The notes beneath the pieces were generated by a model. That model was given only the letters and a program-made list of their open reading frames with translations, ran no database searches and had not been told where the DNA came from. A stretch of DNA of 64,000 nt from an uncultured bacterium (GTDB lineage: Bacteria > Patescibacteriota > Minisyncoccia > Phycocordibacterales > Phycocordibacteraceae): NCBI GenBank assembly GCA_963759775.1, contig CAVXAH010000001.1:528682-592681 (forward strand). Direction: 5' to 3'. A program made the position numbers and the translations under genes. Position 1 is the stretch's first letter; every line of letters begins with the position of its first letter. Shown one piece after another: positions 2,885 to 55,420 of this stretch.

Positions 2885-2890
2885 ACACCT

Positions 2891-2990
2891 CCTGTGGATA
2901 GGTGCTATCCACAGGTCGGCTGACCCCAATATTCTCAAAGGTGTACTCCCATCGAGTCCTGGAAGGGGTCAGCCGGCCTTCCTTTTTTGT
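2891..2990 (+). terminator. compound terminator after typA
   Basis: Hairpin cctgtggata/tatccacagg at 2891-2915. An 11-bp long-range stem cggctgacccc/ggggtcagccg spans 2917-2975 and is followed by ccttccTTTTTTg. Confidence 0.55.
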
Positions 2991-3222
2991 GTAGGTTTTT
3001 AAGCAAAACTGCTTCGTTTAGATAAAAACCAATTATGGGAACATGCATACCCTGAAAGATTTCAGGTTGTATTGCTTAGCTTTATCGTCTCGGCAAGACG
3101 AGTTTCACACAAAGTTTCCCATATGAGGGGATAGAGAGCTTCTTTGAAGGTCATTTGCACCCTTCAAATCCGGCAGGTTCTTCATCAATTCTTATCCTCC
3201 TTTTTTGTCGCAGAATCCTTGA

Positions 3223-9200: not shown

Positions 9201-12200
9201 GCACTGATACCACGGGGGATTACGTTACTTCAATCACAGCAGGAAACGGGCTCGGGGGAACAGGGCTTACGGGAGAAGGGTCAACACCAACTCTTTCCGT
9301 AAATGTAGGAGACGGACTCCAGCTTTCTTCAGATGCCGTCAATTTTGCGCTTCACACGACTGGTCCAGGACTTCAGGCAGATGGCAATGGCCTCTCTCTT
9401 ATTCGTACCTGTGGGGACGGAGAGCTTTTGAAATACACCGCAGCTTCCGGTTGGACTTGTGGATCAGACGCGGGAGCAGGGTCTTCGCCATTTGCCACGG
9501 CAGGGGGGCTCATTACCAAATCAACAGCAAGCGATCGACTTGAATTGCAATACGGCACCCCAGGCGATATTCAGTTTAAAATTACAAATGTTACGGCAAG
9601 TAATGACAGTGCACCGACGGCCGACGCAATGCAGATACTCCTCACGGGAGATGCAGAGGCAGATGCTATTACCACGGGTGGTGTTGATGGACTTTACATT
9701 AACGCGCTCTTTGGTGCAGTGACAGGAGACAACGTCGCCTTACTCCATCTTGACCTTGATACCGCAACCACCTCCTCACCAAGCGGAACGTTTGATGCAA
9801 TACGTATTGATGCTATTCCGGGTTCGGGAGCACAGGAAACGGCAATTGAAATCGGTTCAGGATGGGACAACATTTTGGACACAGGAAGCGTGGACATCAC
9901 CGGAACAGGAAATATTTCCGGTGTAAATGACCTCACGGTGGTGGGTACCGTAAAACTTACGGGGGCAGCATATGCAAACTGTAAAGGCACTGCCGCAAAC
10001 CAAGGAGCGCTTACCGTTGCCGCAGATGGCACGGTGGAGTGTACGGCAGACGACGGTGGTACCGGTACTTCATGGTCGTCACTCACGAACCCAAGCGGAA
10101 ACCTTGCTCTTGTTCACAACGAAAACAAAACGACGTTTACCTGGGACACGGTAGACACAACCGTTTCACCTTTTGATGGCATCACGTTTGCCATCAATAA
10201 CGATGCATCTGTTGATGCTCAAACGCAACGCATCGTCGTCATTAAAAACAATCTCGTTTCCGCCGGAGGTACCATCGAACGTCTTTTGGTACTTGATAAC
10301 GCCGACGGCGGTACGGTACCAACGGCTCTTGAGATTGGCGGATTCGGCGCTATCACGACCGCGATTGATGTCTCCTCTTCAACTATCGGCACCGCAATCG
10401 CTTTTGGTGCAAACGATATTATAGGTACCAATTTCTCAGTCACGGGTGGAACAGGAAATGTTATTACCTCCGGAGATATTGCCGTAAACGGTGGAGATAT
10501 TACTTCAACCAGCGACCTTACTCTTGATGCTCAAGATGGAACACCAACGATTTTCATTGCTAGTGGCGACAATCTACAACTTCAGTCAACCGGAAACATC
10601 CTCCTTGGCACCGGTCGCTTAGACGTTGCGTCGGCAGGGAACTTGAATATTGGTATCACGACCGCAACGGCCGTTGTGATTGGAAACGGCTCAGGAGACT
10701 CTTCCGTACAACTGCCAAGTCAATCAGTAGGCTCAACAGAGATTGTGGACAATGCTATTGGTCAAGCCGACATAACGGACGACTCACTTGATTTTGCAGA
10801 CTTCCAGGACGCTCTTGATCTTGATGCAAACACAACACTACTCTCAACGCTCACCGGTATCGGTCTTGATTATGCACTTTCACCAACGGGCGCTGGTACC
10901 ACCACGGCGTGGGAGATTACCCCAACTATTGCGAGTGGTGTTTCTCAAGAACTTCGTGGCATTCACATAGATCCGGTAACGACAAACGGAAACGCAGGAG
11001 ACTTTATTCAGGGTATTTTGATAGACAATATTACGGGCACCGCTTCCGTTGATACCGGAATCCACATAGGTACGGGATGGGATACGGGCATCCTTGTTGA
11101 TGGCGGGGGAGTCACTATCTCCGCCGGCGCTCTCGCGGTGAACTCTGACTCCATTACCTCCGACGGCACACTACTTATAGACTCAAGCGGTATCGTACGA
11201 CTTGGTTCAAACGACAATCTTGAGCTCCAAGGGTCAGGAAATTTACTTATCGCAGGCGCGAGCGGACGACTTGATGTGAATTCTCTCGCAACGCTCAATA
11301 TTGGTACCACCAATGCGACGGCGGTTGTGATAGGAAATGGAGCAAATACGACGAGCGTTACTATCACCACCACAGCAGCAGGAAATACGGCGCTCGTGGT
11401 GCCAGACCAATCCATTGGAAACGCAGAAATTGCTCTTGATACACTTGACTACGCACAGTTTGACGACTCCCTTGATCTTGATGCAAACACGACGCTTGCC
11501 TTTGCGGGGTTCAACCTCACACATAACTTAAACTCCACGGGAGATTTTCTCATACAGGATGCGGGTACCATCTTCGCACAATTCCTCGATGACGGCACCA
11601 TCACTTTTGGAAAAGCTTCCGGAGCAGGAACGATTAATGTTGGCGTCGGAACCGCAATTGACACTATTAATATTGGTACCGACGCGACCGCAAGTGATGT
11701 GGTGCGGATTGGTTCGTCAAATGCTGACCTCGCACTCACGGACGCACAGTGGTCTATCACCACCTCGGGACTCATCACCACCGCAGATGATATTGCGGTA
11801 AATGGGGGAGACATCACCACAACCGCAAGCACAGGAAATATTTTCAACGCAAACGCGGCAACGGTAAATATTGCAGGGGCCGCGACACTTTTCAATCTTG
11901 CGGACTCAACGACGGTGAAAACAATAGACATTGGCGGTGTCACGGCAGACGGTACGGACACTATCAATATTGCAACCAACGGGACATCAAACAGCGACAC
12001 TGTCACTATCGGAAATTCAAATGGGGGAACCTCAGTCGCGATCACGGGAGGTGATGCGTGGGGCATCTCAGCTACAGGTGTACTCACTCTTTCTACCGAC
12101 GCGTCACCGACGACTGCCATTCTCGCCGTTGATAGCGGATATACCAACTTTGCTGATATTGCCGACAATCATATTATCGGTACAACGCCAAACCTAGACT

Positions 12201-15200
12201 TTACCAACTTTGATGTGGTCGGTTCAACCGGTTCGGTCATCATTGATAACGCAGGGAACACAGGTTCTTTAACAATAGAAGGAACAAACCTAGATATCAA
12301 CTCTCTTGATTTTGTCGGTGCTGGAGCATTCACGACCGGATCAAATGGAAATCTTACGCTGACGCCACATGGTTCAGGTGACGTCATTATCAGCGTTGAC
12401 GCAAACACAAACGTTCAGCTCACTGGCGGCGCAGATGGTGCAAATGCACTCACGGTTGCGGCGGGTGACGTGGTGTTTTCTGACGGCGACTTTACACTTC
12501 TCAGTGGCGACTTTGATGTAACGCTTGATAATGGTGACGGTGCTGGAATAACTTCCGGCTCTGCCGCAACAGCGGACCTTCTCACTCTCGCCGTGACTGG
12601 TGTTGGCTCTGACGGACTCCAAATTAATGCAACACAGCTAGATGATGCGGACGCGACCGATACAACGCGTGCACTGCAGATTTCTGTCACCTCAAATTCA
12701 GGAGACGCAGACACGGTGTATGGAATCACCATAGACAATCTCACGGGGGGCACCGCGAATGAAACTGCACTTTCTATTGGTACGGGTTGGGATACCGGCA
12801 TTATCGTTGGTTCTGGCGGGGTAACTATTTCCTCAGGCGCACTTGCGGTCAATTCAGGCTCTATCACTTCCTCTAGTGGTTCAGGTCTTACCATCAACCC
12901 GATTGATTTCCTGTATCTTGCCTCAGGAGACTCACTCCAGCTTCAGGGTTCGGGCAATTTCTTACTCGGCACGGGTCGTCTAGACACCTCAGCGGGAGCA
13001 ACCCTTAACATTGGTACGACAAACGCTACGGCGATTACGTTTGGCAACGCATCAACTGAGAATTTAATAGTTACGACAAATGGCACCGGTGACTCGGAAG
13101 TACAGCTTCCAACAGGCTCAATAGGTTCAGGAGAAATTGCAAACGGTTCCATTACGCAACTAGACATCGCCGACGACTCTCTTGATTGGGAAGACTTTAA
13201 AGATGCCATGACACTTGATGCGGCAAGCACCATCACCTCTTCCTCAATAAACGGAACATCGCTTTCGCTGAATGTGTCTCCGGACGGTTCCGCTGGTGCT
13301 CCCATTGCATTTCAGGTTACGCCTACCTGGGGTGTAGACACCACCGACCAAACATTTGTTGGTATCAATATTAATCCAAGTACCAATTCAAATACCGACA
13401 GTGGCGATACTCTTATTGGTCTTCAAATCGCGGGTGTGACCGGTACGGTTGGCACAGAAACGGCGCTTCTTATTGGAAGCGGTTGGGACACTTCTATAAG
13501 TGCGGCAGGGAAGGTGGATGTGGGAGGAATTATTGAAGCAGGTTCAAGCAATATTACACTCACTAACAGCACCGGTCAGATTGTTGCGGGCGCATACGCG
13601 AGCCAATCTATTGATGGCGACGACATTGCGGCGTCTATTGCCGGAAGCGGTCTCATTTTGAACACGGCAACGACGCCGGATCAAATTGACATTGATCTTA
13701 TCAACATCGCAGACGCAACGGGTGTCTCAAGTTCAAACTCAGGACTTGAGTTTGGTGGTACTGCAAATGAACAATTAGGACTCCTGCGTGGCTGTGGCGA
13801 CGGACAGCTCCTCAAATGGGTATCGGCCACCTCCGAATGGCAGTGTTCGACCGACGTTTCTGCGGGTACACCGGCATTGAACCAGATTTCTGCCGCACTC
13901 ACCGAAGGTACACCACAAGACTCAAACGAAAACACCGTTCGATGGAACTGGGACTTTACCGGAGGTGGCGCAGCGGATGACTCCGGACTTGTTATTTCAG
14001 AATCCACGGCCTCAACGGCGGGTGAGCAGGATAAGAAATCTTTGTTGGAGATTATTACGCTCGCGGGGTCGCTCGCTTCGCCACTTCAGGTGACCGCAGG
14101 CGGAACAGACGTGGGCGACATATGGTTTGACCTTCAAGGAACCGCTGATTTTGAAATCCGAGAAAACGGTCGCGCACTCGCACGCTTCAACGATGATGCA
14201 AGTATTTATCTTGGAGAAGCAACCACAACATCCTTGATTGATATTGGTGGATCAGCCTCAGACACTATATATATAGCAACCAGTACCGCCGCAGGGGATA
14301 CCGTGGTTATTGGCAACAACCACAGCGCTACCACACTCGTGCTTGATGCGGGTACCGGTGCAAGTGCGATTCAGCTTGGGAACAGTGCCACAGCACACGG
14401 TATTAAGATTGGCACGGGAGCAGCGGCACAAACGGTCACTCTTGGATCCCAAAACTCCACTTCCTCCACAACTATTCAGTCTGGGACCGGCGATCTGTTT
14501 GTGGTTTCAACAGATCAGCTCACGGTGGATGCTGTCGGCATCCTTGAGCTCAATTCCTCTGGTGGCGTAATCTCCATCGGAAACGACGCTGTTGCTCAAA
14601 ACATCAACATTGGAACTGGCGCTGCGGCAAGAACTATCACGGTCGGTAATGGTACTGGCGCCACTGGGTTACGACTTAACACGGGTACGGGTGGTCTCAT
14701 TGCAAACACCCTCACAGGAGGATTTATCTTTACTACCTCATCTACCACCGCACAGGCGATTAATATAGATGTAACAGGTACCGGTGGGGGAATAGATATT
14801 GATACGACCGACGGCGCCTTCTCCCTAACTACGGGCGGAGCAACGAACGGCGACATCAACTTCTTGGCAGGAGACGTGTTTGACATTGACTCTGTTGATT
14901 CACTTTCCCTTAACGCTTCAGCGGGAGTGATAAACATTGGTGATGACGTTGTTTCGCAGGCAATAAATATCGGTACCGGTGGCAGTCGCAGCATTCTCAT
15001 TGGTAATACGACGCCAAATACAGCAATCACTCTTAACTCAGGTGGAGCGGGGGACATTGCCGCAAACTCAGCAGCAACACTCACTTTGGATTCAGTAGGA
15101 GTTCTTGAACTCAATTCCTCGGGAGGAATAATTTCAATAGGAAATGATAACGTCAATCAAAATATCCGTATTGGCACCGCCGGCAACCGCACCATCACTC

Positions 15201-17350
15201 TTGGCGTCACTGGCGGCTCAACCGCACTAAGCCTTATTTCCGGCACGGGTGATATCACTCTCTCTTCCGATGACGATGTCACCATTAACGGAGCGGGAGC
15301 AACGGCAGTTATTGGCATTGGTACGGCATCGGTTGCCCAAACCATTAATATTGGAAATGTAACAGGAGCTACTCTGGTCAACATTGATGCGGGAACGGGC
15401 GGCATCACGCTGGATTCAACCGGTGTTGGCGATATTTTGCTCAATTCTTCGGACACGATTCTCATGGACTCCGCAAACGCGCTCTCCATCAACTCCTCTG
15501 GTGGAGTGATCTCCATCGGCAACAACGCCGTCAACCAAAACATCAACCTCGGCACCGCCGGCAACCGCACCATCACTCTTGGCGTCACTGGCGGCTCAAC
15601 CGGTCTCGCTCTTAACGCAGGTACGGGCAATATCGCACTCACTACCTCCTCAACCGGAGACATCACCCTCAACTCCACGGACACAGTGTTGATCGACTCT
15701 GCTGGTGTCTTGCAGCTCAACTCCTCTGGTGGAGTGATCTCCATCGGCAACAACGCCGTCAACCAAAACATCCAAATCGGCACCGCCGGCAACCGCACCA
15801 TCACTCTTGGCGTCACTGGCGGCTCAACCGGTCTCGCTCTTAACGCAGGTACGTCCGACATCACTCTTTCCTCAGACGACGACATCTCTATTAACGGGGG
15901 TGGAGCAAGTGCCGCCATTGACATTGGAACCATTGGAACCGCTCACACCATCACCCTCGGCAACTCCACGGGCGCCACCTCGCTCGCGCTTAACACCGGC
16001 ACCGGTCTTCTCACTGTCGGCGCAAACGCCATCGCCCACACCATCGTGATCGGCAACAAAACGGGCGACTCCTCAGTCCTCATTGATTCAGGGACCGGCA
16101 ACATTGATATTGGTACCTCAACGGCGAAGACTATTCGCGTGGGAAATGCGACAGGTGCAACAGCTCTGATACTTGCCGCAGGTACCGGCGATCTCGCCCT
16201 CACCTCAACCGACCTCCTCACTCTTGATTCCGCAAACGCGCTCTCTATCAACTCCTCCGCTGGCGTGATCTCCATCGGCAACAACGCCGTCAACCAAAAC
16301 ATCCAAATCGGCACCGCCGGCAACCGCACCATCACTCTTGGCGTCACTGGCGGCTCAACCGGTCTCGCTCTTAACGCAGGTACGTCCGACATCACTCTTT
16401 CCTCAGACGACGACATCTCTATTAACGGGGGTGGAGCAAGTGCCGCCATTGACATTGGAACCATTGGAACCGCTCACACCATCACCCTCGGCAACTCCAC
16501 GGGCGCCACCTCGCTCGCGCTTAACACCGGCACCGGTCTTCTCACTGTCGGCGCAAACGCCATCGCCCACACCATCGTGATCGGCAACAAAACGGGCGCC
16601 TCCTCAGTCCTCATTGATTCAGGGACCGGCAACATTGATATTGGTACCTCAACGGCGAAGACTATTCGCGTGGGAAATGCGACAGGTGCAACAGCTCTGA
16701 TACTTGCCGCAGGTACCGGCGATCTCGCCCTCACCTCAACCGACCTCCTCACTCTTGATTCCGCAAACGCGCTCTCTATCAACTCCTCCGCTGGCGTGAT
16801 CTCCATCGGCAACAACGCCGTCAACCAAAACATCCAAATCGGCACCGCCGGCAACCGCACCATCACTCTTGGCGTCACTGGCGGCTCAACCGGTCTCGCG
16901 TTGAATGCAGGATCAGGCAATGCTGTTGTTACGAGCGCAACCATAAACCTTGCCGCCAGCGCAAATCTCCAGATAAATGGAGCAAACGGTGCAACCGCGA
17001 GTTGTTCCGGAACACTCTCTTCAACCATTACTACCACAAAAGGAATGGTCACCACCCACGCATGTACTTCAGACCAGCGGCTGAAGTCGAATTTTGGTGA
17101 GTTTAGCAATGTCCTAAATCGAATACAAGATATTCGAGGTGGTACATTTTATTACAACGACCTGTATCGTCAGTTGAGCGGGGACACGGAGAATTTTGAC
17201 ATACACTCAGGCTTTTTAGCGCAAGAGGTTCAGAGAACTTTTCCTGAGCTTACAAAAAGTTCAAGTATCACGGAATTATTGCGTTCGCGGAAGATGGGGT
17301 TACGCCGCACACAATTGGATTATCCAAAATTGCTCGTGGCCATTGCCTAG
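3287..17350 (+). CDS. giant secreted Gly/Thr/Ser-rich repeat protein (~4,687 aa) with C-terminal tail-fibre/peptidase S74-like intramolecular chaperone domain
   Basis: The frame is uninterrupted for 14.06 kb. GTG 3287 gives [41 protein letters not shown]|AVG, a signal or anchor. It contains many internal repeat modules. The C-terminus reads SDQRLKSNF...[14 protein letters not shown]...[10 protein letters not shown]. The track start TTG 3155 was rejected (see notes). Confidence 0.85.
15488..16889 (+). repeat. in-frame tandem repeats inside the giant gene (228-nt older unit, then 531-nt unit x2.2 at near-identity)
   Basis: The unit starts atcaactcc at 15488, 16247 and 16778 (equivalent position 15716 in the first 531-nt copy, which begins ctcaactcc). 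Positions 15738-16246 and 16269-16777 differ at one base (a16068 vs c16599). 16778-16889 repeats the first 112 nt. Confidence 0.9.
17069..17347 (+). other. peptidase S74-like / intramolecular chaperone auto-processing domain (domain of the giant CDS)
   Basis: S-D-x-R-L-K-x-N, then GFLAQEV..FPEL, then DY.KL. These are the hallmark motifs of the endosialidase and tail-fibre C-terminal chaperone domain. Confidence 0.6.
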
Positions 17351-17692
17351 GCATCCAAGGAGACTCGAATGCAAAAAGTAAATACGCCACCCAAGTCCTC
17401 GACTCACCGCCTTGGTGTCGCATTGAATCTCGTCACATGCGCTTGGCTCTGTTCAGTCCCATATCTCCGCATTGAGTCAAAGGTAAATGCTCGAGCAACA
17501 GTTCACGACGAAAGGACTTACCGTGAACGGCGCGACGACACTCAATGGCACGGTCTCTTTTAAGGGGCAGTCTCTTTTGCAAAACAAGTAGAATTCCTCG
17601 TCGCACCGACCTTTAACAAAGACACGGGCGGATTTGCGGTTGTTCAAGAAGGAGACCAGGAAGTACGCATTTCATTCTCCGAGCCGTATGCC
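17351..17692 (+). pseudogene. frame-broken linker between the giant ORF and the 17564-18199 ORF
   Basis: There is no long ORF here, but protein-like pieces appear in several forward frames. One is LTVNGATTLNGTVSFKGQSLLQNK (17517-17588). It continues in another frame as VEFLVAPTFNKDTGGFAVVQEGDQEVRISF (from 17588). Confidence 0.4.
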
Positions 17693-18199
17693 GTGCAGCC
17701 AGTCGTAACAGCTTCTATGACCTTTGAGGAGGGCGACTTGGTGGCGAGCGCAGACGCCGATGTCCTTTTCGCCTCCGATATTCGCTACTTAGTGATGAAG
17801 AAAGATTCAACCGGCTTCACTATCCGCCTCAACAAAGCTGCTCCAAGAGACATTCGATTCTCCTGGGTTGCACTTGCTATTAAAGACGCAAACGTCTCGT
17901 GGAGCCTTCACGAAGGACTTTCTCCCGTCATACCTCCAGCAAACCCAACATCGCCACCAGCTCCAGAGCTGACCCCAGAACCCACACCAATAGATGAGCC
18001 AACACCTCCTCCCGCAGAAGAACCCGTCGCGACAAGTACGCCACCAATGAGCGAGCCCGAACCGGAACCCGCTCCAGAGCCTGCACCCGAACCAACTCCT
18101 GAACCTGAACCAACTCCTGAACCTGCGCCCGAGCCAGCACCGGAACAAACTCCAGAACCAACTCCAGAACCTGAGCCAGCTCCAGAGCCAGCGCCGTAA
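17693..18199 (+). CDS. C-terminal beta-domain plus Pro/Glu/Ala/Thr-rich tail; probably the displaced C-terminus of the giant protein
   Basis: The frame is open from 17564 and is the same phase as the giant ORF. ...GFTIRLNKAAPRDIRFSWVALAIKD is followed by about 80 aa of PEP/PAP/PTP repeats. There is no credible start or RBS of its own (GTG 17693 only). Confidence 0.5.
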   Translation: MQPVVTASMTFEEGDLVASADADVLFASDIRYLVMKKDSTGFTIRLNKAAPRDIRFSWVALAIKDANVSWSLHEGLSPVIPPANPTSPPAPELTPEPTPIDEPTPPPAEEPVATSTPPMSEPEPEPAPEPAPEPTPEPEPTPEPAPEPAPEQTPEPTPEPEPAPEPAP

Positions 18200-18205
18200 T
18201 CGCGT

Positions 18206-18547
18206 ATGAAATTAACTTCATTGCACGTCGCTTACACCGCAGGACTTATCGCGGCACTCGTCATCGTTGGTCTCGGATGGTTTTGGTTTTCTACTTCCCA
18301 TGAAGACGAGACCGCGCGCGTTGCGCGCGCGGTCGCAGAGCTCGCAATCGTCCCCGATGAGATTCCCATCATTACGACCGTTACTGACCCCACAAAACTC
18401 GCCGACACCCCACTCGCAGGCGAAGCAAAGGTGGGGGACAAGGTACTTTTCTACCAAAACGCCAAACGTCTGATCCTCTACCGTCCTTCCGAGAATCGCA
18501 TTGTTGATATTGTGCCTTTTAAAATTGGCGTAACGCCCTCGCCATGA
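18206..18547 (+). CDS. hypothetical N-terminally membrane-anchored protein
   Basis: 113 aa with a single TM (AYTAGLIAALVIVGLGWFWF). It starts 6 nt after the previous stop. I recognise no domain. Confidence 0.55.
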   Translation: MKLTSLHVAYTAGLIAALVIVGLGWFWFSTSHEDETARVARAVAELAIVPDEIPIITTVTDPTKLADTPLAGEAKVGDKVLFYQNAKRLILYRPSENRIVDIVPFKIGVTPSP

Positions 18548-18566
18548 CGTATCAGCATCTTTCCCC

Positions 18567-18593
18567 AATTAACGAGGTCCGACCTCGTTAATT
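18567..18593. repeat. REP-like palindrome, copy A (3' flank of RAYT gene)
   Basis: aattaacgaggtc-c-gacctcgttaatt has perfect 13-nt arms. The central base is inverted relative to copies B and C. Confidence 0.8.
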
Positions 18594-18597
18594 TACG

Positions 18598-19230
18598 CTA
18601 GTCTTCAATTTCTTTTTGGAGCCACTCAAAGCCTTCAAAATCTTTTCTATATTCTCTTGGTCCACCAAAAAAATCAAGAAAGAAACTTTTATTTACGAAA
18701 GGATACATATTAGTTCCGAGTACGTAATCACGGTAACTACTCCACGGATAATCCTCCAGTTTTTCTCCGCGCGCGAGTGCATCAATCGGGTTTTTATGGA
18801 TGTAGTGGGGGATATACATAAACTGCGCATCCCGCTCAATCAATACCGCTTTAAACTTTCCTTGGAAAAGAGGTCCCACGCGTTCGTTCTTCTTGTTGAA
18901 ATACATGGTGTACCCGGTACATACTTTTTGCATAAATTTAGAAATCCCACCCTCTTCTATTTGACGTAACAGTAAATGGAAATGATTCGACATTAGAGCG
19001 AAGGCCAAAATTTCTACAAGCTCTTTTTCATAACGAGGTCGGACCTCGTTAATTTCCTTATTGAGCAGATAAGTAGTGTTGTTCGCCGCGTTGGACGTAT
19101 TAAATGTCTCAAGCGAATTGACGAAACGAGCATACTCTTTCGGTGTTTGGAATATAAAACGTTTTTCAACTCCACGATTGAAAACATGATAGATTTCTCC
19201 CGCAACGAGCGAAGGTTTCTGCATATACAC
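18598..19230 (-). CDS. REP-associated tyrosine transposase (RAYT, IS200/Y1-like)
   Basis: 210 aa. The motifs are YHVFNRG, LMSNHFHLLL (HUH) and YIHKNP (catalytic Tyr helix). Confidence 0.75.
   Translation of the reverse strand: MYMQKPSLVAGEIYHVFNRGVEKRFIFQTPKEYARFVNSLETFNTSNAANNTTYLLNKEINEVRPRYEKELVEILAFALMSNHFHLLLRQIEEGGISKFMQKVCTGYTMYFNKKNERVGPLFQGKFKAVLIERDAQFMYIPHYIHKNPIDALARGEKLEDYPWSSYRDYVLGTNMYPFVNKSFFLDFFGGPREYRKDFEGFEWLQKEIED
19030..19053. repeat. REP-like palindrome, copy B (inside the RAYT coding sequence)
   Basis: ataacgaggtc-g-gacctcgttaat. On the coding strand it encodes ..INEVRPRYE.. in frame. Confidence 0.75.
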
Positions 19231-19235
19231 ATTCT

Positions 19236-19258
19236 ATAACGAGGTCGGACCTCGATAA
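19236..19258. repeat. REP-like palindrome, copy C (5' flank of RAYT gene)
   Basis: ataacgaggtc-g-gacctcgataa, located 6 nt upstream of the RAYT start codon. Confidence 0.75.
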
Positions 19259-19297
19259 AGGTTAGGGAAAGTGATGGTATGGTATTGAGAGCGGCGT

Positions 19298-20596
19298 ATG
19301 AGGCATTTCATTCTTATTTCAAGAGCATCGTTGCTCCTTTTCGGCATTCTTTTCTTTGGCGTACTGGCGCATGCGCAACAAGAAATGACCGGAACGAATT
19401 TTACGGTTTCAACGCCAGTTATCACGCAAGGCGGGGTTCGCTCCACCTCGGCAAGCTTTGAGCTCTATACCTCTCACGGCCAGCTCTCAAGTTCGGAGTC
19501 AACGAGCGCGAGTTTTATTGGTCGTGGCGGATTCCTCCATTTTCCCGTTGCCACAACACCCACTCTGTCAGCGACCGCGGGCGACCAACAAGTGATGCTT
19601 TCGTGGACCGCCTCGGTTGGTACGCTCGCGCGTATCAATGATTATCAAGTCGGTGTAGGAACGGTCTCTGGCGGACCTTATACCTTTCAGTCGGTAGGAG
19701 AAGTTCTCCTCTTCACTAAGAACGGCCTCACCAATGGAACGACGTATTATTTCGTGGTGCGCGGAATGGCGGGAACACTCGCTCTTTCAGAATCAAATCA
19801 GGTAAGCGCAACACCTTCTGGTGTAGCACCTCCTGGTGGTGGAGGCGGTGGTGGCGGAGGAGGAGGCGGTGGAGGTGGATCTGGCAGTATGAAAATTTCA
19901 GGTCTCGCGTCGCCCGGCGCATCCGTAACGCTTCTTAAAGATGGTTCAGTGGCCGCAACGACACCTGCCGACCCGAGCGCAAGTTGGTCAATTACGCTTA
20001 ATAATCTGAACGCGGGTATTTATTCTTTCAGCGCGTACGCCTCGGATACGACAGGACTCCAATCTTCTACGGTCAACTTTACGCAGTCCGTTACCTCTGA
20101 TGCTGAGACAGAGGTTACTAACATCTTTCTCTCTCCTACCATCGGCAAAAGCCACAAGCAGATTAAACAGGGTGAGACGATTACCTTCTTTGGTCTCACA
20201 GCGCCGCAGTCGGACGTCGCGCTCTTCGTTCACTCAGACCAGGAGTTTGTTGAGAAAATTAAAGCAGGAGTCAATGGTGCGTGGGTAAAAGCTTTTAACT
20301 CAGCATTCCTTGAGCTTGGCGACCACGCGGCACGGTCTCAAAGTTCGAAAACCAATCAGCTTTCAACCTACAGCCCCTCGGTTGCCTTCGTTGTGGGGAA
20401 CACTTCACTTCCAGAAGATGGTCTGTGCCGCCGCTCGGACCTTAACTGTGATGGAAAAGTAAACCTCACAGACTTCTCTATACTTCTTTTCTTTTGGGAC
20501 CAGACGAGCCCGGCGAACGCGCGCGCGGACATCAACATTTCCGGACGCGTTGATATTACTGACTTCTCTATACTCCTCTATGACTGGACCGGCTAA
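19298..20596 (+). CDS. secreted FN3 + Ig-like protein with C-terminal dockerin repeats
   Basis: Signal peptide MRHFILISRASLLLFGILFFGVLAHA|QQ. An FN3-like segment (LSATAGDQQVMLSW...TTYYFVV) is followed by a 14-Gly linker and two Ig-like segments. The C-terminus carries two dockerin repeats, DLNCDGKVNLTDFSILL and DINISGRVDITDFSILL. Confidence 0.7.
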   Translation: MRHFILISRASLLLFGILFFGVLAHAQQEMTGTNFTVSTPVITQGGVRSTSASFELYTSHGQLSSSESTSASFIGRGGFLHFPVATTPTLSATAGDQQVMLSWTASVGTLARINDYQVGVGTVSGGPYTFQSVGEVLLFTKNGLTNGTTYYFVVRGMAGTLALSESNQVSATPSGVAPPGGGGGGGGGGGGGGGSGSMKISGLASPGASVTLLKDGSVAATTPADPSASWSITLNNLNAGIYSFSAYASDTTGLQSSTVNFTQSVTSDAETEVTNIFLSPTIGKSHKQIKQGETITFFGLTAPQSDVALFVHSDQEFVEKIKAGVNGAWVKAFNSAFLELGDHAARSQSSKTNQLSTYSPSVAFVVGNTSLPEDGLCRRSDLNCDGKVNLTDFSILLFFWDQTSPANARADINISGRVDITDFSILLYDWTG

Positions 20597-23346: not shown

Positions 23347-23488
23347 TTCAAAAATATAAGCCCTACTACGCTTCTTAAGAAAGAAGCTTCGAAGGGCACT
23401 ACTTCGTATAGCAAAAACCACCCGATGTGATAATCAAGTGGTTTGTGCCGTGCACTTCGAAGCACTGAGTCTTCGAGGTGCGAAGTAG

Positions 23489-23926
23489 TGGAGGCGGGGA
23501 GAGTCGAACTCCCGTCCGAATCTGACGATGAAAGCGCTTCTACGACGCGTAGTTTTGATTAAGGTTTAGGAAAGGGTGTGAGAACCAAAACGAAACCACT
23601 CCTTTCCGATCCCGAAGCCCGTCACACTTATGCAGTGTGGCGGGCGAATTTAAGTAAGTCGGATGGGCGTCCGGCTACCGTACTCACAGATAATTCCGCC
23701 TCTCTCTGCGCTGTGAGCGCCGTGAAGAAAAAGACGTCGCTTAGGCGAAGAAGCCGTGAGGCTTACGCGTAAGCGAACGCAAAATCCTTCATACCGAAGT
23801 ATGGGGACTTTACGCTTGCAAGAGTGTTCTTTGCAAGTATGTTGCTCAATCGGATTTAGGTGGCAGATGAGCGTGCACCGCGTCGCGCGTTTTTCAAAGT
23901 ACAGACCGTCAAAGCCGGTCACCCCC
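23489..23926 (-). ncRNA. ssrA: tmRNA (SsrA), one-piece
   Basis: 5' GGGGGTGACCGGCTTTGACGG. 3' GGGAGTTCGACTCTCCCCGCCTCCA gives a T-arm plus an acceptor with G3.U70. The internal frame ends ...KDFAFAYA-TAA inside a hairpin. It is adjacent to smpB. CCA is not encoded. Confidence 0.85.
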
Positions 23927-27234: not shown

Positions 27235-27307
27235 GCGCCTATAGCTCAATGGTTAGAGCACCAAGCTTATACCTTGGCGGTTCCACGTTCGAGTCGTGGT
27301 AGGCGCA
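27235..27307 (+). tRNA. tRNA-Ile (anticodon TAT)
   Basis: Perfect cloverleaf with acceptor GCGCCTA/TAGGCGC, anticodon stem CCAAG/CTTGG, loop C-T-TAT-A-C and T-arm CCACG-TTCGAGT-CGTGG. Confidence 0.85.
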
Positions 27308-27392
27308 CTTGCGGAGCAAGTGCGAGCCGTAGCGCGACGGCGCGAGGCGGGGTCGCAAGCGTTTTCAGCAGAAAACGACTGGTGACCACAGG
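27305..27392 (+). repeat. structured ~75-nt repeat, copy 1 (directly 3' of tRNA-Ile)
   Basis: H1 is GCACTTGC-gga-GCAAGTGC. The core is AGCGCGACGGCGCGAGGCGG (27331-27350). H3 is CGTTTTC-agca-GAAAACG (27360-27377). Confidence 0.7.
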
Positions 27393-36991: not shown

Positions 36992-37362
36992 TCGGACCAA
37001 GCTAGACGATCGCTTCGTGCGCCTATGGCGCATGGGGAGGAAAGTCCGAGCACGGGCGGCGCGAAAGCGCCGCAGAAGGGTAGCGGGTAACGCCCGTCGT
37101 CCGCGAGGACAGAGGTGCCTACAGAGACGCTCCACGCGAAAGCAAGGAGATTCCTTTCGGGGAAGGGTAGTCCCATTGCAAGATGGGGGTGCAACGAACA
37201 AATCCTTACCTCCGTGCAAGGCCGTATCGCTAACAACAGTTGGCGGGGAGCCGCTTGAGGCGATGAGTAATCATCGTCCCAGATACATGATCGTTGTCAC
37301 CCCGTCACACTGCATAAGTGTGGCGGGCACTGAACAGAACTCGGCTTATCGGCTCGGTCCAC
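36992..37362 (+). ncRNA. rnpB: RNase P RNA, bacterial type A
   Basis: GGAGGAAAGTCCGAGC and ACAGAACTCGGCTTATCGG universal motifs. P1 pairs GGACCAAGC with GGCTCGGTCC. A TATAAT box sits at 36983-36988. The ends are approximate. Confidence 0.85.
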
Positions 37363-44523: not shown

Positions 44524-44766
44524 ATGGATAAAAAGATCACCATTTACAGCACGCCGACCTGCCATTTCTGCCACCTGACCAAGGACTTCTTGAAAGAGAA
44601 GGGAATTGGCTTTACGGACTACGACGTGGCGCATGACCTCACGAAGCGTCAGGAAATGATACAGAAGTCGGGTCAGATGGGAGTTCCCGTCATTTTTGTC
44701 GGTGACGAAATGATTATCGGGTTCGACAAGGAAAGGCTCGTTTCCACCCTCGGCATCACGGCGTAG
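44524..44766 (+). CDS. glutaredoxin/NrdH-like redoxin
   Basis: 80 aa with the CHFC active site and GVPVIFVGDEMIIGF. Confidence 0.8.
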   Translation: MDKKITIYSTPTCHFCHLTKDFLKEKGIGFTDYDVAHDLTKRQEMIQKSGQMGVPVIFVGDEMIIGFDKERLVSTLGITA

Positions 44767-44778
44767 GCTTGCAAAAGC

Positions 44779-44810
44779 AAAACCCGCGCCGGGAAGCCGG
44801 CGCGGGTTTT
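44779..44810 (+). terminator. intrinsic terminator
   Basis: aaaacccgcgccgg-gaag-ccggcgcgggtttt. Confidence 0.8.
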
Positions 44811-44829
44811 GTGTTAGTGTCAGGTCATT

Positions 44830-44901
44830 GCCGCTGTAGTTCAATGGATAGAACGGCTCACTCCTAACGAGCAAATGCAGGTTCGATTCCCGCCGGTGGC
44901 A
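44830..44901 (+). tRNA. tRNA-Arg (anticodon CCT), with imperfect stems
   Basis: Acceptor GCCGCTG/CGGTGGC (two G.U) and loop CT-CCT-AA. There is one A-C mismatch in the anticodon stem and one in the T-stem. Confidence 0.65.
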
Positions 44902-44943
44902 CAAAAATCAGATATAAGGCAAGCCCGCAGTCCCGTCCGTGGG

Positions 44944-45058
44944 GCACACTGCGAAGCAGTGTGCGGCCGGAGCGCGACGGCGCGAGGCGGAATCGCGCAC
45001 ATTTTCAACAGAAAATGATGCGTGACAGATGGTGGTTCAATTCCGCCCAGAGGTACCA
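44944..45058 (+). repeat. structured repeat, copy 2, ending in a tRNA-like T-arm/acceptor/CCA
   Basis: H1 is GCACACTGC-gaa-GCAGTGTGC. The core spans 44971-44990. H3 is CATTTTC-aaca-GAAAATG. GGTGG-TTCAATT-CCGCC-CAGAGGT-A-CCA follows at 45031-45058. Confidence 0.65.
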
Positions 45059-45101
45059 AACCAAAGCGATTCATTTCTTGATATACTGAACGTTATAAAT
45101 C

Positions 45102-45383
45102 ATGGACCCGGAACTAAAGCGCCTCCTTGAACAGAATCTCGCATTGGGGAAAGAAAATAACTCTATGCTACGGTCCATGCGCCGAAATGCGCGGTTCGGT
45201 TTCGCTTTTAAGATTATTCTATGGGCAGTACTTCTTCTTGCTCCTCTCTACTTCTACCAAGAGTACCTCGCACCTATTATTGGGCAATTTCAACCCGGCG
45301 GGCAGAGGGGGTCCACGAGCAATTTTGCTTTCCCCTCATACGCAGACTTCCAAAAGTTGCTTGAGGAATACAAATCCCAATAG
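45102..45383 (+). CDS. hypothetical small membrane protein
   Basis: 93 aa with one central TM (FAFKIILWAVLLLAPLYFY). Confidence 0.5.
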   Translation: MDPELKRLLEQNLALGKENNSMLRSMRRNARFGFAFKIILWAVLLLAPLYFYQEYLAPIIGQFQPGGQRGSTSNFAFPSYADFQKLLEEYKSQ

Positions 45384-47157: not shown

Positions 47158-47862
47158 TTAGCAGACATTTCTGGGTGCGCTGCGGTAGGTGAAGTACTTC
47201 AGTATCTCAAAAGCAGCGAAGAAGACGAGCGCGACCGTCCACACAAGGAAGAATGCAGAGAGTGCCTGTGAACCGCCATCTTTCATGATAAGCAGGTTGA
47301 ATGCCGTATGCAATACGACAGCAAGGATAAGTCCTCCTGCGGCGTATAGGATGCGATAGGTCGGGCGAAGGTGGTATGACCATGCGAAAGCAAAGCCGAT
47401 TGCTGATGAGGCAAGAACATGGAGAAGGGTAGAACCAAGGAACCGGAGGTGGTTGGTCACCAAGGTCTCGGCAAGTTGTCCGTTTTGGATCGTATGAACG
47501 AGGAAGAGCGCATTTTCTGCGGCGGCAAAGCCAAGAGCGACGGTGAGCATGTAAACCACATAGTCAGGAGATTCATCAACGGCTCGCCGCCAAAGGATGA
47601 AAGCGGCTGCAAAAAAATACTTCAATACTTCTTCAATTGTTGCCCAGGCGAAGATGAGAGGAACGCCTGAGGCAACGGCCTCGCGCGCGTACTGCTCGGG
47701 GGCTATAGCAAGAGGGACGGCTATCATACCGGCAAGAAAGGCGAGGGTAATCATTCCGCGCGGTTCCGGGCACCTCGCGTCCTCCTTCAAAAGGAAATAC
47801 AGCCAAATGAGGGCAGGTATAAGTCCCCCGACGAGCGCATATCCAATGACTTGAAACTCCAC
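47158..47862 (-). CDS. PrsW-family intramembrane metalloprotease
   Basis: EEVLKY and GFAAAEN motifs with 7-8 TMs. The start is GTG. Confidence 0.7.
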   Translation of the reverse strand: MEFQVIGYALVGGLIPALIWLYFLLKEDARCPEPRGMITLAFLAGMIAVPLAIAPEQYAREAVASGVPLIFAWATIEEVLKYFFAAAFILWRRAVDESPDYVVYMLTVALGFAAAENALFLVHTIQNGQLAETLVTNHLRFLGSTLLHVLASSAIGFAFAWSYHLRPTYRILYAAGGLILAVVLHTAFNLLIMKDGGSQALSAFFLVWTVALVFFAAFEILKYFTYRSAPRNVC

Positions 47863-47930
47863 TCTCTTATTCTAACGCACTTAGAGTATGTTCAAAAAAC
47901 CCTCTGGCGAAAGCATGCCTCCTCGGGTAC

Positions 47931-48012
47931 GGCATTTTTCCTGCTGAAAAAATGCCTGAAATGCTCGCGCCGTCGCGCTCGCAACCCCCTCCGATGCACG
48001 CCCCCGCCTTCG
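47931..48012 (-). repeat. structured repeat, copy 3 (diverged, directly 3' of valS)
   Basis: On the minus strand it reads ...GCGAGCGCGACGGCGCGAG...GGCATTTTTTC-agca-GGAAAAATGCC. Confidence 0.55.
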
Positions 48013-48016
48013 GGAT

Positions 48017-50185
48017 TTAGTTTACGGGCCACTTCGCGACCATGAGGAAGTCTGAGTTTTTTGTTGGCATGGATTGGTAGATTTCCTCCGTGACAAATGG
48101 CATGAAAGGGTGGAGCAGGCGGAGCGAGCCATCAAGCAGGTCCAGGAGGAGCGCTTGGCGCGACACTTTTGCGTTTAGGTCAGTGCCTACAAGAAGAGGC
48201 TTTGACTCTTCAATAATTTTGTCTGCGAGTTCATGCCACACGTAGTGATAAATCTTTTCGGCCGCAAGATAAATCCGGTACTCTTCAATGTCGGCGGTGA
48301 CATCAGCAGAGAGTGTATGAAATGCGGTTTTGAGTAGAACATCCGCTTCGGATAATGCCGCACCCGCGTCAGCGTCCTTGGCGTTATCGAGTACAAAGCG
48401 CGCAATATTCCAGATCTTATTTCGCGAAGTGCTTGTAGCCTTTTATTTTGTCTTCACTAATGCGCATGTCGGTTCCGGGTGCGTTTCCGACGACGAGCGC
48501 CATCCGTGCCGCGTCCGCACCAAATTTTACGGCCACATCAAGCGGGTCCATGTTGTTTCCGAGCGACTTAGACATTTTTCGGCCTTGAGCGTCTCGTACG
48601 AGGCCGTGAAGGTATACGGTTTTGAAAGGAATGTCCTTAAGCGCAAATTCCGTCATAAGAATCATACGAGCAATCCAGAAGAAGAGGATGTCATAACCGG
48701 TTTCAAGAAGGTCGGTCGGATGATAGGTCTCAATGTCTTTTGTTTTGTCGGGCCACCCGAGCGTTGAGAAAGTCCAAAGACCGGAAGAGAACCACGTATC
48801 AAGCGTGTCTTCGTCTTGTGTCCAACCTTCGCCCTTCGGAGCTTCGCCTACATTGATGTCGGTGCCGCGATACCACACAGGAATACGGTGGCCATACCAA
48901 ATTTGACGGCTGATGCACCAGTCGCGCAGGTTTTCTATCCAGTGGAAATACGTTTTCTCAAAGTGTTCTGGAACAATCTTGATTTTTCTTTCGCGCACGG
49001 GCTCAAGCATGAGCTCCTTAAGAGTTTTGCCTCGTCCCGGCACGGCTTGTTTACGGCGACAAACCACTGGAGTTTTGGAAGTGGCTCCACGATGCCTCCC
49101 GTGCGCTCTGCTGTCGCAACGTTTTGTTTGAGATCTTCTTCCTTCTCCAAAAGCCCCTCCGCACGAAGCCATTCAACTACAACCTCTTTCGCCGCAGTCG
49201 TTTTAATTCCCGCGAGGCGGCCAGGAACCGTCATTTTTGCGAACTCATTAATAACAATCACTTCTTTTGGAAGGTCGTGTCGCTCGGCAATTTCCCAGTC
49301 GGTCCGGCTGTGGGCAGGGGTAACGCCGACCGCACCGGTACCAAACGCAGGATCAACCTCCTTATCCGCAACCACCTTTATATGAATCGGTACGTCACAA
49401 AACACCGCGTCGTATTCTTTGCCGACAAACTTCTTATAGCGCGCATCGTCGGGGTGCACTGCGACCGCGACATCGCCCACCTTGGTTTCAGGGCGGGTGG
49501 TGGCGACAGGAATGGGGAAGTCTTTCGAATACTTAAAAGTGTAGAGCTTCGCCGGGCGTTCTTCGTAAACGATTTCATCGTCCGAAATAGTGGTTTGGCC
49601 CTTTGGGTCCCAGTTCACAATCCGATTGCCGCGGTAAATAAGTCCCGCATCGTACATTTGTTTGAAAATGGTACGAACAGCACCACTTCGCGTTTCATCA
49701 AGCGTAAATGCCTCTCGCGACCAGTCAAGCGAGGCGCCCATAGTTTTGAGCTGGGTCAGAATAGTGTCGTGGCTTTCTGAAGCGAATTTTTCAATGCGCT
49801 TCAAAAGCTCATCACGTCCCAAGTCATGCCGGCTCTTGTCCTCCTCTTTCTTTATTTGTTTTTCAACGACGGATTGCGTCGCGATGGCGGCGTGGTCAGT
49901 ACCAGGGATCCACAGTGTGCGGAAGCCACGCATGCGCTTGAAACGCACGAACACATCTTGGACCGCAAGCATAAGCGCATGTCCCATGTGAAGCCGCCCC
50001 GTGACGTTTGGGGGAGGCAAGACGATGGAGTATGTGGGAGCGTCTTTCTTAGCGATGCCCTCCGCAATACAGGTGTCGGGGTTGAAAAAACCACTCCTTT
50101 CCCATTCATGGTAGATGCGCGCTTCCGTCTCTTGTGGTTGATAAGGTTTTAGAAACTTCTCGGGCATTTGCAAGAAATATAGCAA
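48017..50185 (-). CDS. valS: valine--tRNA ligase, two frame breaks (near 49046 and 48417-48422)
   Basis: [14 protein letters not shown] (HIGH), [15 protein letters not shown] and KMSKSLGN motifs. The anticodon-binding part [11 protein letters not shown]... resumes in another frame after gcgAAAtaa. The total length is divisible by 3. Confidence 0.85.
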
Positions 50186-50615: not shown

Positions 50616-51840
50616 GCGAGCGACAGATTTCCGTTTGCTTTGAGAGAATCGGATGCGGCGAATTCTTTGCGAGAGGCGCGGTAGAAGCCCGCAAGTGCAA
50701 TCATGACCGCATTGTCGGTGGTGAGCGACGCATGGGGAATACGAAGCGAGACATTGGGATATTCCGTTTTCATCATTTCCGCAAACGTGCGGCGGATATG
50801 AGTGTTTGCGGAGACTCCGCCGCCAATGACTAGCGTCCCGGCATTCGTATCTTCAAGGGCGCGAGCGGTTTTCTTCCAAAGAACTTCAGTAACCGCATTT
50901 TCAAATTCGTGCGCAATATGCTTCTTCTCTTTTTCAGTTACATTTGGATCTCCATCCGGCGGTCGTTGAGGAGATACAGCACGGCGGTCTTGAGTCCCGC
51001 GAAAGAGAAATCACACGTTCCGGAATCAATCATGGGACGTGGAAGCGCATACGGATTTTTCTCGCTTACGGCTCGCGCTTCTTCGGCAAGTTTTGAAATC
51101 TGCGGGCCACCCGGGTACGGAAGGTTGAGCATGCGAGCCACCTTATCAAACGCCTCGCCGACGGCGTCGTCACGAGTTTGCCCGATAAGTTCGTAGGAGA
51201 GCCATTCTCTCATCAGCACCAGTTCAGTGTGACCACCAGAAATAAGGAGGGCAAGAACCGGCAGAGCAATATCTTTTATGTAAAGGGATTCTCCGCTCTT
51301 TTCATTTTTAAACTTTTCACTTTCGGTCCTCGTCCTTTCCGCTAATGCGGAAAGGATATGTCCCTCCATGTGGTTCACTGCCACTAAGGGTTTCTGCCAC
51401 AAAAGGGAGAGTGCGCGTGCGAAATTAATACCAACCCAAAGTGCCGGCTCAAGACCAGGTCCGGCCGTTACTGCGATTGCGTCTACTTCGGGAGTTTCGC
51501 ACTCTGATACGAATTCAAAAAATTGCTCCGTAAGACCGGGCTCGCGCGCCAAAATCTCCGCGATTTTGGCGCGCATTTCTGGCGAGATTGTCTGCAAACT
51601 CTCGTGGAGCAATTCTGCCTCTTCAAGTGCCGCCTCAAGAATAGGAACCAGATTTTTCGCATGTTCACGCTTTGCAAGAGCAGGGAAGACTCCACCGTAT
51701 TGCTGGTGTATTTCTATCTGAGACAAGAGCGCGTTTCCCAGTACGCGAAATCGTGCTTCCTTTTCATTTCCTTGTGCCTCAACCACAGCGATAGCAGTTT
51801 CGTCACAGGACGTCTCGATTGCCAAAATTTTCATAAGCAA
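50612..51840 (-). CDS. tsaD: tRNA N6-adenosine threonylcarbamoyltransferase TsaD, one frame break near 50956
   Basis: ILAIETSCDETA...GGHT...FSFAGLKTAV, then in the -1 frame ...IAHEFENAVTEVL...VIGGGVSAN...TDNAVMIA. Confidence 0.8.
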
Positions 51841-55136: not shown

Positions 55137-55347
55137 AAGCCAGTTATACAACAAATCCAGAACTTGGCCAAACGCGGTGAGGGCTTGGCCAAGAACATTT
55201 CCAGCTCGCCGTCGCTCGTGGAAATTTCTCGGCCCTGCTCGCGCGACCTGTCGTGTTCGACAGGTGCACATGCTCGCTTTCAAGTCCCTCATCGCTGCTA
55301 TAAAATAATAGTCGCCGCACGCTTTCGCGTACGGCTTCTTTATTTTG

Positions 55348-55420
55348 TGCGCGGTGAGGGACTTGAACCCCCGACCCCATCCACGTCAAGGAAGTGCTCT
55401 ACCAACTGAGCTAACCGCGC
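55348..55420 (-). tRNA. tRNA-Val (anticodon GAC)
   Basis: GCGCGGTTAGCTCAGTTGGTAGAGC...TT-GAC-GT...GGGGGTTCAAGTCCCTCACCGCGCA. A TTGAAT-17-TATTCT promoter lies upstream on the minus strand. Confidence 0.85.

Follow-up and report, generated by a model that had tools for sequence, protein, structure and literature searches.

A 64,000-nucleotide (nt) stretch of the genome of an uncultured member of the Phycocordibacteraceae (Patescibacteriota; contig CAVXAH010000001.1, positions 528,682 to 592,681), called the window below, carries several copies of a structured non-coding repeat. The second copy lies between a transfer RNA gene, tRNA-Arg(CCU), and an orphaned 3' third of a tRNA on the plus strand at 45027-45058. 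This fragment is tRNA-derived and not a chance motif, and sequence comparison indicates that it is quite probably the stranded 3' third of the site's original tRNA-Arg(CCU) gene. The tRNA character of the motif, relatives with a single CCA-encoding tRNA-Arg and no repeat, and duplicated tRNA ends beside other copies of the repeat together point to a relic of the local gene. An earlier interpretation based on this DNA alone (the sequence-only reading) had listed a displaced tRNA 3' end left by an integrative element among its possibilities; the displaced end is supported, but there is neither an integrase nor a kilobase-scale island. The fragment itself probably has no function.

The fragment starts with AGAT (45027-45030), which reads as a tRNA variable loop and directly precedes a T arm, GGTGG-TTCAATT-CCGCC, at 45031. 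The acceptor 3' strand CAGAGGT, a discriminator A and CCA complete it up to 45058, exactly the sequence described before, and T arm, acceptor strand and discriminator show canonical tRNA spacing. When the window was scanned for strict T arms (a stem of 5 bp in which one G.T pair was tolerated, G53-C61 and a TTCRANN loop), nine sites were obtained: seven tRNAs, the transfer-messenger RNA (tmRNA) and the fragment. Windows simulated with a second-order Markov model (n = 300) contained 0.31 T arms on average, and in 0 of 300 was a T arm followed by CCA at the correct offset. One could still ascribe the tRNA-end resemblance to chance, for which only the shortness of the motif speaks, but given these simulations, and with the other eight strict T arms all being real tRNA or tmRNA arms, the probability of this is practically nil.

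ARAGORN and Rfam found eight tRNAs, the tmRNA and RNase P RNA in the window and made no tRNA call at the fragment. Rfam was searched at gathering score over the whole window and permissively, at E ≤ 10, over 44700-45200 and 47800-48100; the first of these segments yielded only tRNA-Arg(CCU) with 58.9 bits and a 7.8-bit partial match to the tmRNA T arm. A single one of the eight window tRNA genes, tRNA-Ser(CGA), encodes CCA, in line with the count given earlier. No exact 5' partner for CAGAGGT ([AG][CT][CT]T[CT]TG) was present within 200 nt upstream, and the sole one-mismatch partner that starts a tRNA, GCCGCTG at 44830, is the 5' acceptor strand of tRNA-Arg(CCU) itself. ARAGORN, Rfam and the partner scan over 200 nt thus agree with the sequence-only reading that no 5' acceptor strand, D arm or anticodon arm completes a cloverleaf upstream. 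A split or intron-containing tRNA was rejected, there being no upstream 5' half and no partial partner other than the strand of tRNA-Arg. The same applies to a piece of a two-piece tmRNA: an intact tmRNA is encoded elsewhere in the window (23486-23926, minus strand), and the fragment has no 5' partner.

On its left side the locus is bounded by a terminator-like hairpin 3' of a glutaredoxin gene (44779-44812, plus strand), a conserved flank that is nearly identical in the alignment with a sister locus, L119. The present tRNA-Arg(CCU) gene follows at 44830-44902 (plus strand; ARAGORN). It lacks an encoded CCA, its 3' end reading GGTGGC-A-CAAAAA, and continues into the trailer CACAAAAA. Mismatches and two acceptor-stem G.U pairs had been noticed in this tRNA; the Rfam alignment indeed marks two non-standard pairs, and the two G.U pairs are confirmed. 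The DNA between the gene and the fragment (44903-45026) is non-coding. It comprises a trailer or spacer without counterpart in the L119 alignment (44903-44943, plus strand) and a small hairpin, GCACACTGC-GAA-GCAGTGTGC, recognized in the fold, the repeat comparison and the Rfam alignments (44944-44964, plus strand), ahead of the core of repeat copy 2 (44963-45029, plus strand; 77.9 bits, E = 3e-20 with R1, a covariance model of the repeat). The junction of this core and the fragment reads GCGTGAC-AGATGGTGG. The right flank is conserved as well and consists of an open reading frame (ORF) of 93 aa (45102-45383, plus strand; ORF call), which served as query for sister loci.

Three sister loci were reached through homologues of this ORF, and the R1 search found the repeat absent from all of them (L119, L120 and L122). 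L119, with an ORF 83% identical, has the methyltransferase and glutaredoxin genes, the same terminator hairpin, one tRNA-Arg(CCU) and the 93-aa ORF; its tRNA ends TGAGGGC-A-CCA, and 7 nt later TTGATATACT and the ATG of the ORF follow. In L120 (ORF 56% identical) the tRNA-Arg(CCU) just upstream of the ORF likewise encodes CCA and has TTCAATT as its T loop, and L122 (46% identical) has a tRNA-Arg without CCA and with an ACAAAA trailer. At each site a single tRNA-Arg(CCU) lies beside the ORF or the glutaredoxin gene, and the next tRNA is tRNA-Phe, past the ORF. Compared with L119, the window has about 170 extra bases, and the ACCA of the fragment stands just before the same TTGATATACT...ATG flank. 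The variable loop AGAT is likewise that of the L119 tRNA-Arg; GAT precedes the T stem in five of eight compared tRNA-Arg(CCU) genes. With ACCA position and AGAT loop both matching L119, the fragment appears to hold the place and the CCA of the 3' end of the resident tRNA-Arg. Parsimony over the three sister loci favours a gain in the window lineage, although the same picture would result if recombination of the two ends had caused a loss in L119.

The sister loci also bear on a second origin, namely that the fragment is the remnant of another tRNA gene of different identity whose 5' two-thirds were lost at repeat insertion or by deletion. The same 20-nt T-arm/acceptor sequence does occur in intact tRNA-Gly(UCC) and tRNA-Thr(UGU) of unrelated organisms, and the acceptor strand CAGAGGT is unlike the CGAGGGC usual in tRNA-Arg(CCU). 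We nevertheless regard this origin as very unlikely: the slot holds only tRNA-Arg(CCU) in the three relatives, loop and ACCA match the L119 tRNA-Arg, and the fragment begins 5 nt past the repeat core, which leaves no room for a 5' half. The decayed tandem tRNA proposed in the sequence-only reading is right only in so far as the fragment is a remnant of a tRNA gene; the relatives have no second tRNA here.

Several observations weigh against an origin from the resident tRNA-Arg. A metagenome scan for the 20-mer GGTTCAATTCCGCCCAGAGG of the fragment retrieved only the unrelated tRNA-Gly and tRNA-Thr and no relative of the locus, so that the parent tRNA is assigned by position and loop sequence, not by an intact match. 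A tRNA with a matching 3' half, a point raised by the sequence-only reading, was not present among 105 tRNAs of the window and the loci, where the best match (18 of 25 positions) was not close. Fragment and present tRNA-Arg 3' third are identical at 23 of 33 positions (~70%), which is no clean att-like direct repeat. Relative to the L120 tRNA, the present 3' third is about 83% and the fragment about 71% similar, values that fit a decaying relic but do not prove which end is ancestral. The fragment's T stem finds no pairing partner in the T-stem 5' strand of the present tRNA-Arg; each T stem pairs with its own partner, and any crossover would therefore lie 5' of the T arm, while at other loci the junction is in the T loop. 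The site comparison is based on one close relative, L119. Finally, no recombinase, transposase or reverse transcriptase was linked to any copy of the repeat when 1,542 ORFs within 2.5 kb of 118 listed copies were clustered.

For the stranding of the tRNA-Arg end, we envisage an incoming segment that separated the tRNA body from its old 3' end; the old end would thereby have been left downstream and the gene intact. This segment would have brought either a replacement tRNA end or an entire CCA-less tRNA-Arg, followed by a trailer of the CACAAA type and a single repeat copy. In one version, an element with a replacement 3' third would have inserted at the boundary of anticodon stem and variable loop, giving a hybrid tRNA; this would fit the two acceptor G.U pairs and the one-mismatch fit of the tRNA-Arg 5' strand to the fragment. 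In the other, a whole CCA-less tRNA-Arg plus repeat may have replaced the 5' two-thirds of the old gene. Both the direction of the event and the ancestral end are what we infer from these comparisons. As to mechanism, our guess is that a non-autonomous element recombined at tRNA 3' ends, directed by site or homology and with the catalysis supplied in trans; in many copies an internal antisense arm of the element pairs with the duplicated tRNA end.

The repeat proposed in the sequence-only reading proved real, R1 giving three solid copies in the window (82.2, 77.9 and 34.2 bits) and a divergent, weak fourth (17.2 bits). The core of copy 1 (27323-27389, plus strand; 82.2 bits) lies directly after tRNA-Ile(UAU) (27235-27308). 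By BLAST within the window, copy 2 shares a 25-nt block with 27326-27350 after tRNA-Ile(UAU) and one of 17 nt with minus-strand positions 47980-47964. Copy 3 (47896-48018, minus strand; 34.2 bits, fold z -4.5) carries its core, 47924-47986, at the tip of a long outer stem and is located just after the stop codon of a minus-strand ORF, followed by a U-tract.

Copies 1-3 fold to the same two hairpins, P2 and P3. P2 consists, from its 3-bp base upwards, of an internal loop (GGA/GA or GUA/GA), a GCGC stem and a GACG loop; P3 is long, has a bulged A in its stem and bears UUUUC-ANCA-GAAAA at the tip. In copy 2 the hairpins correspond to 44966-44988 (P2, GCC-GGA-GCGC-GACG-GCGC-GA-GGC) and 44993-45025 (P3, bulged A at 45018, loop AACA). 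In the fold of copy 2, no strand pairs with the acceptor strand of the fragment. Compensatory double changes were observed at 13 of 22 predicted pairs across 46 sequences, and one pair is G.U in 34 of the 46, making the fold specific to one strand. The isolated non-Watson-Crick positions of the long stems described below (19 G.T, 2 A.C) similarly indicate selection on the fold of one strand. Known small self-cleaving ribozymes gave no match when the junctions were compared with the hammerhead core by eye and through Rfam, without a dedicated test. Separately, a 28-nt GC-rich hairpin, CCCGYCACACTGCATAAGTGTGRCGGGC, occurs in the tmRNA (23617-23644, minus strand) and in RNase P RNA (37301-37328, plus strand) with 93% identity; in both RNAs the Rfam consensus lacks it, and it resembles the hairpin GCACACTGCGAAGCAGTGTGC before copy 2.

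The divergent fourth copy (55173-55290, minus strand; three-way-junction fold, z -6.3) follows tRNA-Val(GAC) (55347-55420). Behind the tRNA the order is spacer, antisense arm GAGGGACTTG with GAAAG, variant core and AAGCCCTCACCGCG (55186 to 55173). The last element is a 14-15-nt direct repeat of the tRNA-Val 3' end AAGTCCCTCACCGCG (55364 to 55350) and pairs with the antisense arm. A GAGCGACGGCGAGC hairpin sits at the tip of P3 in this copy.

To find the repeat in relatives, species-representative genomes were scanned for GCGCGACGGCGCGAG-N(5-30)-TTTCANCAG, which gave at least 118 loci. The count of 129 copies used below refers to copies with an exact core among the matches listed. R1 produced 163 hits distributed over 123 loci, a single 8-kb locus containing as many as six. 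Nearly all of the loci found by the scan belong to metagenome-assembled genomes (MAGs) of Patescibacteria, and two look like chance matches. The hosts comprise Paceibacterota, Nomura-, Kaiser-, Yonath-, Taylor-, Zambryski-, Niyogi- and Adlerbacteria as well as bins labelled Saccharibacteria. The conserved core spans about 60 nt of a non-coding element of 125-190 nt. Rfam 15 has no family for copies 2 and 3 or the fragment at either search level, and a full-text literature search that included the core sequence found no description of the repeat. Peptides encoded by the core matched four small hypothetical proteins in the protein database, which was uninformative. The 1,542 neighbouring ORFs are housekeeping only and contain no conserved gene family, and the integrase genes that the sequence-only reading had considered were not found within 2.5 kb of the 118 listed copies. 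Altogether, the repeat family is large, conserved and, judging by Rfam and the literature, apparently undescribed.

The element occurs in two forms. In the long-stem form the core caps a near-perfect stem that differs between copies (median 19 Watson-Crick pairs, maximum 38 bp), and this form showed no orientation bias with respect to neighbouring genes or local GC skew, a weak result that depends on crude longest-ORF gene calls. In the tRNA-linked form the core follows a small hairpin, often after a tRNA. Such a position, within 150 nt downstream of a same-strand tRNA, is taken by 22 of the 129 listed copies, and among the matches listed tRNA-adjacent copies are co-oriented with the tRNA in a ratio of 37:6. 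At seven loci (L001, L018, L025, L046, L073, L079 and L100) a 16-19-nt direct repeat of the upstream tRNA 3' end, reaching from mid T loop to two bases past the discriminator, directly follows the core, and an upstream arm complementary to the direct repeat closes a three-way junction. The pattern of tRNA, repeat and copy of the tRNA 3' end is thus found at seven other listed loci, plus the tRNA-Val of the window. Tandem units after a single tRNA are present in L079 (two) and L055. The recurrent duplication with constant end-points, together with the tandem arrays found at single tRNAs, recalls site-specific integration at tRNA genes; the enzyme would have to act in trans.

Given these duplicated ends, the fragment might have been carried in with the repeat from an earlier tRNA host, as its right-hand duplicated end. 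Other copies do have a tRNA 3' end at the right border, and the cores nearest to copy 2 belong to another lineage (L061, Kaiserbacteria), which hints at exchange. In those copies, however, the carried end matches the adjacent tRNA, starts in the T loop and abuts P3, whereas the fragment has a whole T arm and variable loop, and its CCA end and flank align with the sister locus; we therefore give the carried-in origin very little credence.

The sequence-only reading had also offered a tRNA-mimic 3' module. On this view the T arm, acceptor strand and CCA would be a functional module of an RNA of about 150 nt, which might act as RNase P/RNase Z processing signal, as substrate of the CCA-adding enzyme or as aminoacylatable tag. 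The motif is intact in its 5-bp T stem, its canonical loop and its CCA. Several other copies pair the duplicated tRNA 3' end with an antisense arm in a 6-16-bp helix that resembles an acceptor/T minihelix, and the 37:6 co-orientation makes co-transcription with the tRNA plausible. In L001, L092 and L051 NCCA follows the helix, and the adjacent tRNAs of L001 and L051 lack CCA; the NCCA helices of these three copies could equally reflect displaced ends from CCA-encoding ancestors. Copy 2, on the other hand, has neither a 5' acceptor strand nor an antisense arm, since fold and partner scan revealed no strand pairing with the acceptor strand of the fragment. A complete orphan T arm 3' of the core was found in copy 2 alone, 1 of the 129 listed copies, and is thus not a design feature of the repeat family. 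It is absent in L119, L120 and L122 and has no Rfam match, and both position and sequence are fully explained by an old tRNA-Arg end. A mimic module at 45027-45058 is consequently highly improbable.

Further features were noted at tRNA-linked copies. The tRNA-like end after the repeat ends NCCA in L001, L092 and L051; the adjacent tRNAs of L001 and L051 read CAA after the discriminator, and L092 has no adjacent tRNA call. Many CCA-less tRNAs (window, L007, L025, L055, L067, L074, L079, L116 and L122) show CA or CACAAA directly after the discriminator, and in one repeat subclass CACAAA is the 5' strand of the first hairpin of the element and recurs after P3. L055 contains six R1 matches in 8 kb (regions 6600-7250 and 1950-3050, both minus strand). 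One tRNA is followed there by serial units, each of which ends in a copy of the 3' end of that tRNA or in the inverted copy, and long perfect hairpins extend from the acceptor 3' strand across a terminator-like A/T-tract stem. In L061, from a Candidatus Kaiserbacteria MAG (2250-2760, minus strand), a tandem duplication of 260 nt takes in the repeat, a stretch resembling a promoter and the beginning of tRNA-Glu. Its first unit runs on into a partial tRNA-Glu copy with GC-rich hairpins at the D-loop and anticodon-loop positions, and the second repeat core lies about where the T loop of this copy would be.

The long-stem form was also found in-frame inside conserved genes, with the Pfam domains continuing on both sides. 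Forward copies reside in tsaD at the same site in four hosts (L044, L101, L113 and L117; peptide ..GSATARARGIFQQKNIR..), in dnaE (L056 and L093), in uvrD/pcrA (L063), in miaA (L096) and in a phosphoglucomutase gene (L043); reverse copies occupy pheT (L064, L105 and L114; peptide ..GYFSAEKFLVLAPSRS..). The verified forward insertions share one frame, giving ..SATARARGIFQQK.., the insert peptide in TsaD, and the peptide of the insert in PheT is GYFSAEKFLVLAPSR. The inserts add 28-40 residues to these conserved proteins. Among the four tsaD hosts, whose proteins are 57-64% identical, the core of about 60 nt is essentially identical and the arms differ yet remain paired, which suggests that the nucleotide sequence is strongly constrained at its site, an impression biased by the exact-word search that located the loci. 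The TsaD of the window has a short linker at the insert site and no insert. Its gene (50618-51840, minus strand) stops in frame at 50938, and the C-terminal 103 residues are in another frame (50926-50618), either a frameshift or an assembly error.

The tRNA-like end itself is a common scar without new biology, marking the gain (or loss) of one repeat copy with an empty sister site. Beyond that, the strand-specifically folded repeat, as RNA or single-stranded DNA, could be more than selfish DNA and represent a new class of element with pairing-guided insertion, target duplication and selected retention, a possibility that we rate as rather unlikely. The antisense arm would base-pair with a target such as the last 13-19 nt of a tRNA, the target would be duplicated, and strong selection at orthologous sites would keep the element, even in tsaD, pheT and dnaE. 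In tRNA operons, an acceptor/T-like minihelix of arm and duplicated tRNA end would allow the element to be excised like a tRNA by RNase P, RNase Z and the CCA-adding enzyme; on this view, copy 2 would be followed by a broken or variant handle, the CCA-ended fragment. If mobile, the repeat would be a rare active small element in highly reduced genomes and may have shaped tRNA 3' ends, speculatively including the loss of encoded CCA, the replacement end in the window being without CCA. If functional, it would be an abundant RNA or DNA signal in a major, poorly understood bacterial branch. For annotation, such inserts can cause false tRNA-like or small-ORF calls. Elsewhere in the window, large diverged direct-repeat blocks with units of 90-300 nt extend over 4500-20000, with Pro/Glu-rich periodicities of 12-18 nt near 18000; we take these repeats to be typical of giant repetitive surface-protein genes.

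Compared with known systems, the fragment shares with tRNA-like 3' modules that T arm, acceptor strand, discriminator and CCA end a structured non-coding segment, and some sister copies have a minihelix-like stem with the antisense arm. Unlike in tmRNA, viral and retroplasmid ends, mascRNA-type signals and external guides of RNase P, the acceptor 3' strand of copy 2 is unpaired, and the module is not conserved among copies or relatives. The tRNA-like domain of tmRNA differs in addition by its G3-U70 pair; position 70 of the fragment is G, which would pair with C, and there is no 5' partner.

Integrative elements at tRNA and tmRNA genes produce a similar arrangement of intact tRNA, inserted DNA and partial tRNA 3' end, with the site empty in a relative, and the exact 16-19-nt repeats at other loci, which start in the T loop and can be tandem as in serial integration, add to the likeness. 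Here, however, the insert measures only 125-190 nt and has neither integrase nor linked gene in the 118 listed loci, its conserved part is a covarying single-strand fold instead of recombinase arm sites, and the two ends in the window are ~70% identical with the junction 5' of the T arm.

[quoted passage not shown] In contrast to REP/REPIN, which RAYT transposases mobilise, most copies of the repeat lack a GTAG/CGTC tag and read CGGA-GCGC, GTAG being found in few (such as window copy 1, L099 and L116), and beside the copies of the 64-kb window and the listed loci neither a RAYT (Y1 HUH transposase) nor another transposase gene was noticed. Unlike REPs and MITEs, the repeat showed neither conserved inverted repeats at its termini nor short target duplications of fixed length, and copies are also present in coding sequence.

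The nearest described analogue is presumably the Rickettsia palindromic element, a likeness drawn from published descriptions. It too is a multi-copy non-coding hairpin repeat of about 100-150 bp in a reduced genome, beside or inside RNA genes, with intergenic copies and in-frame copies in conserved genes. The repeat described here belongs to another phylum, its apical core of about 60 nt is near-invariant across a class-level clade, and its closing arms vary between copies and often copy the end of the neighbouring tRNA.

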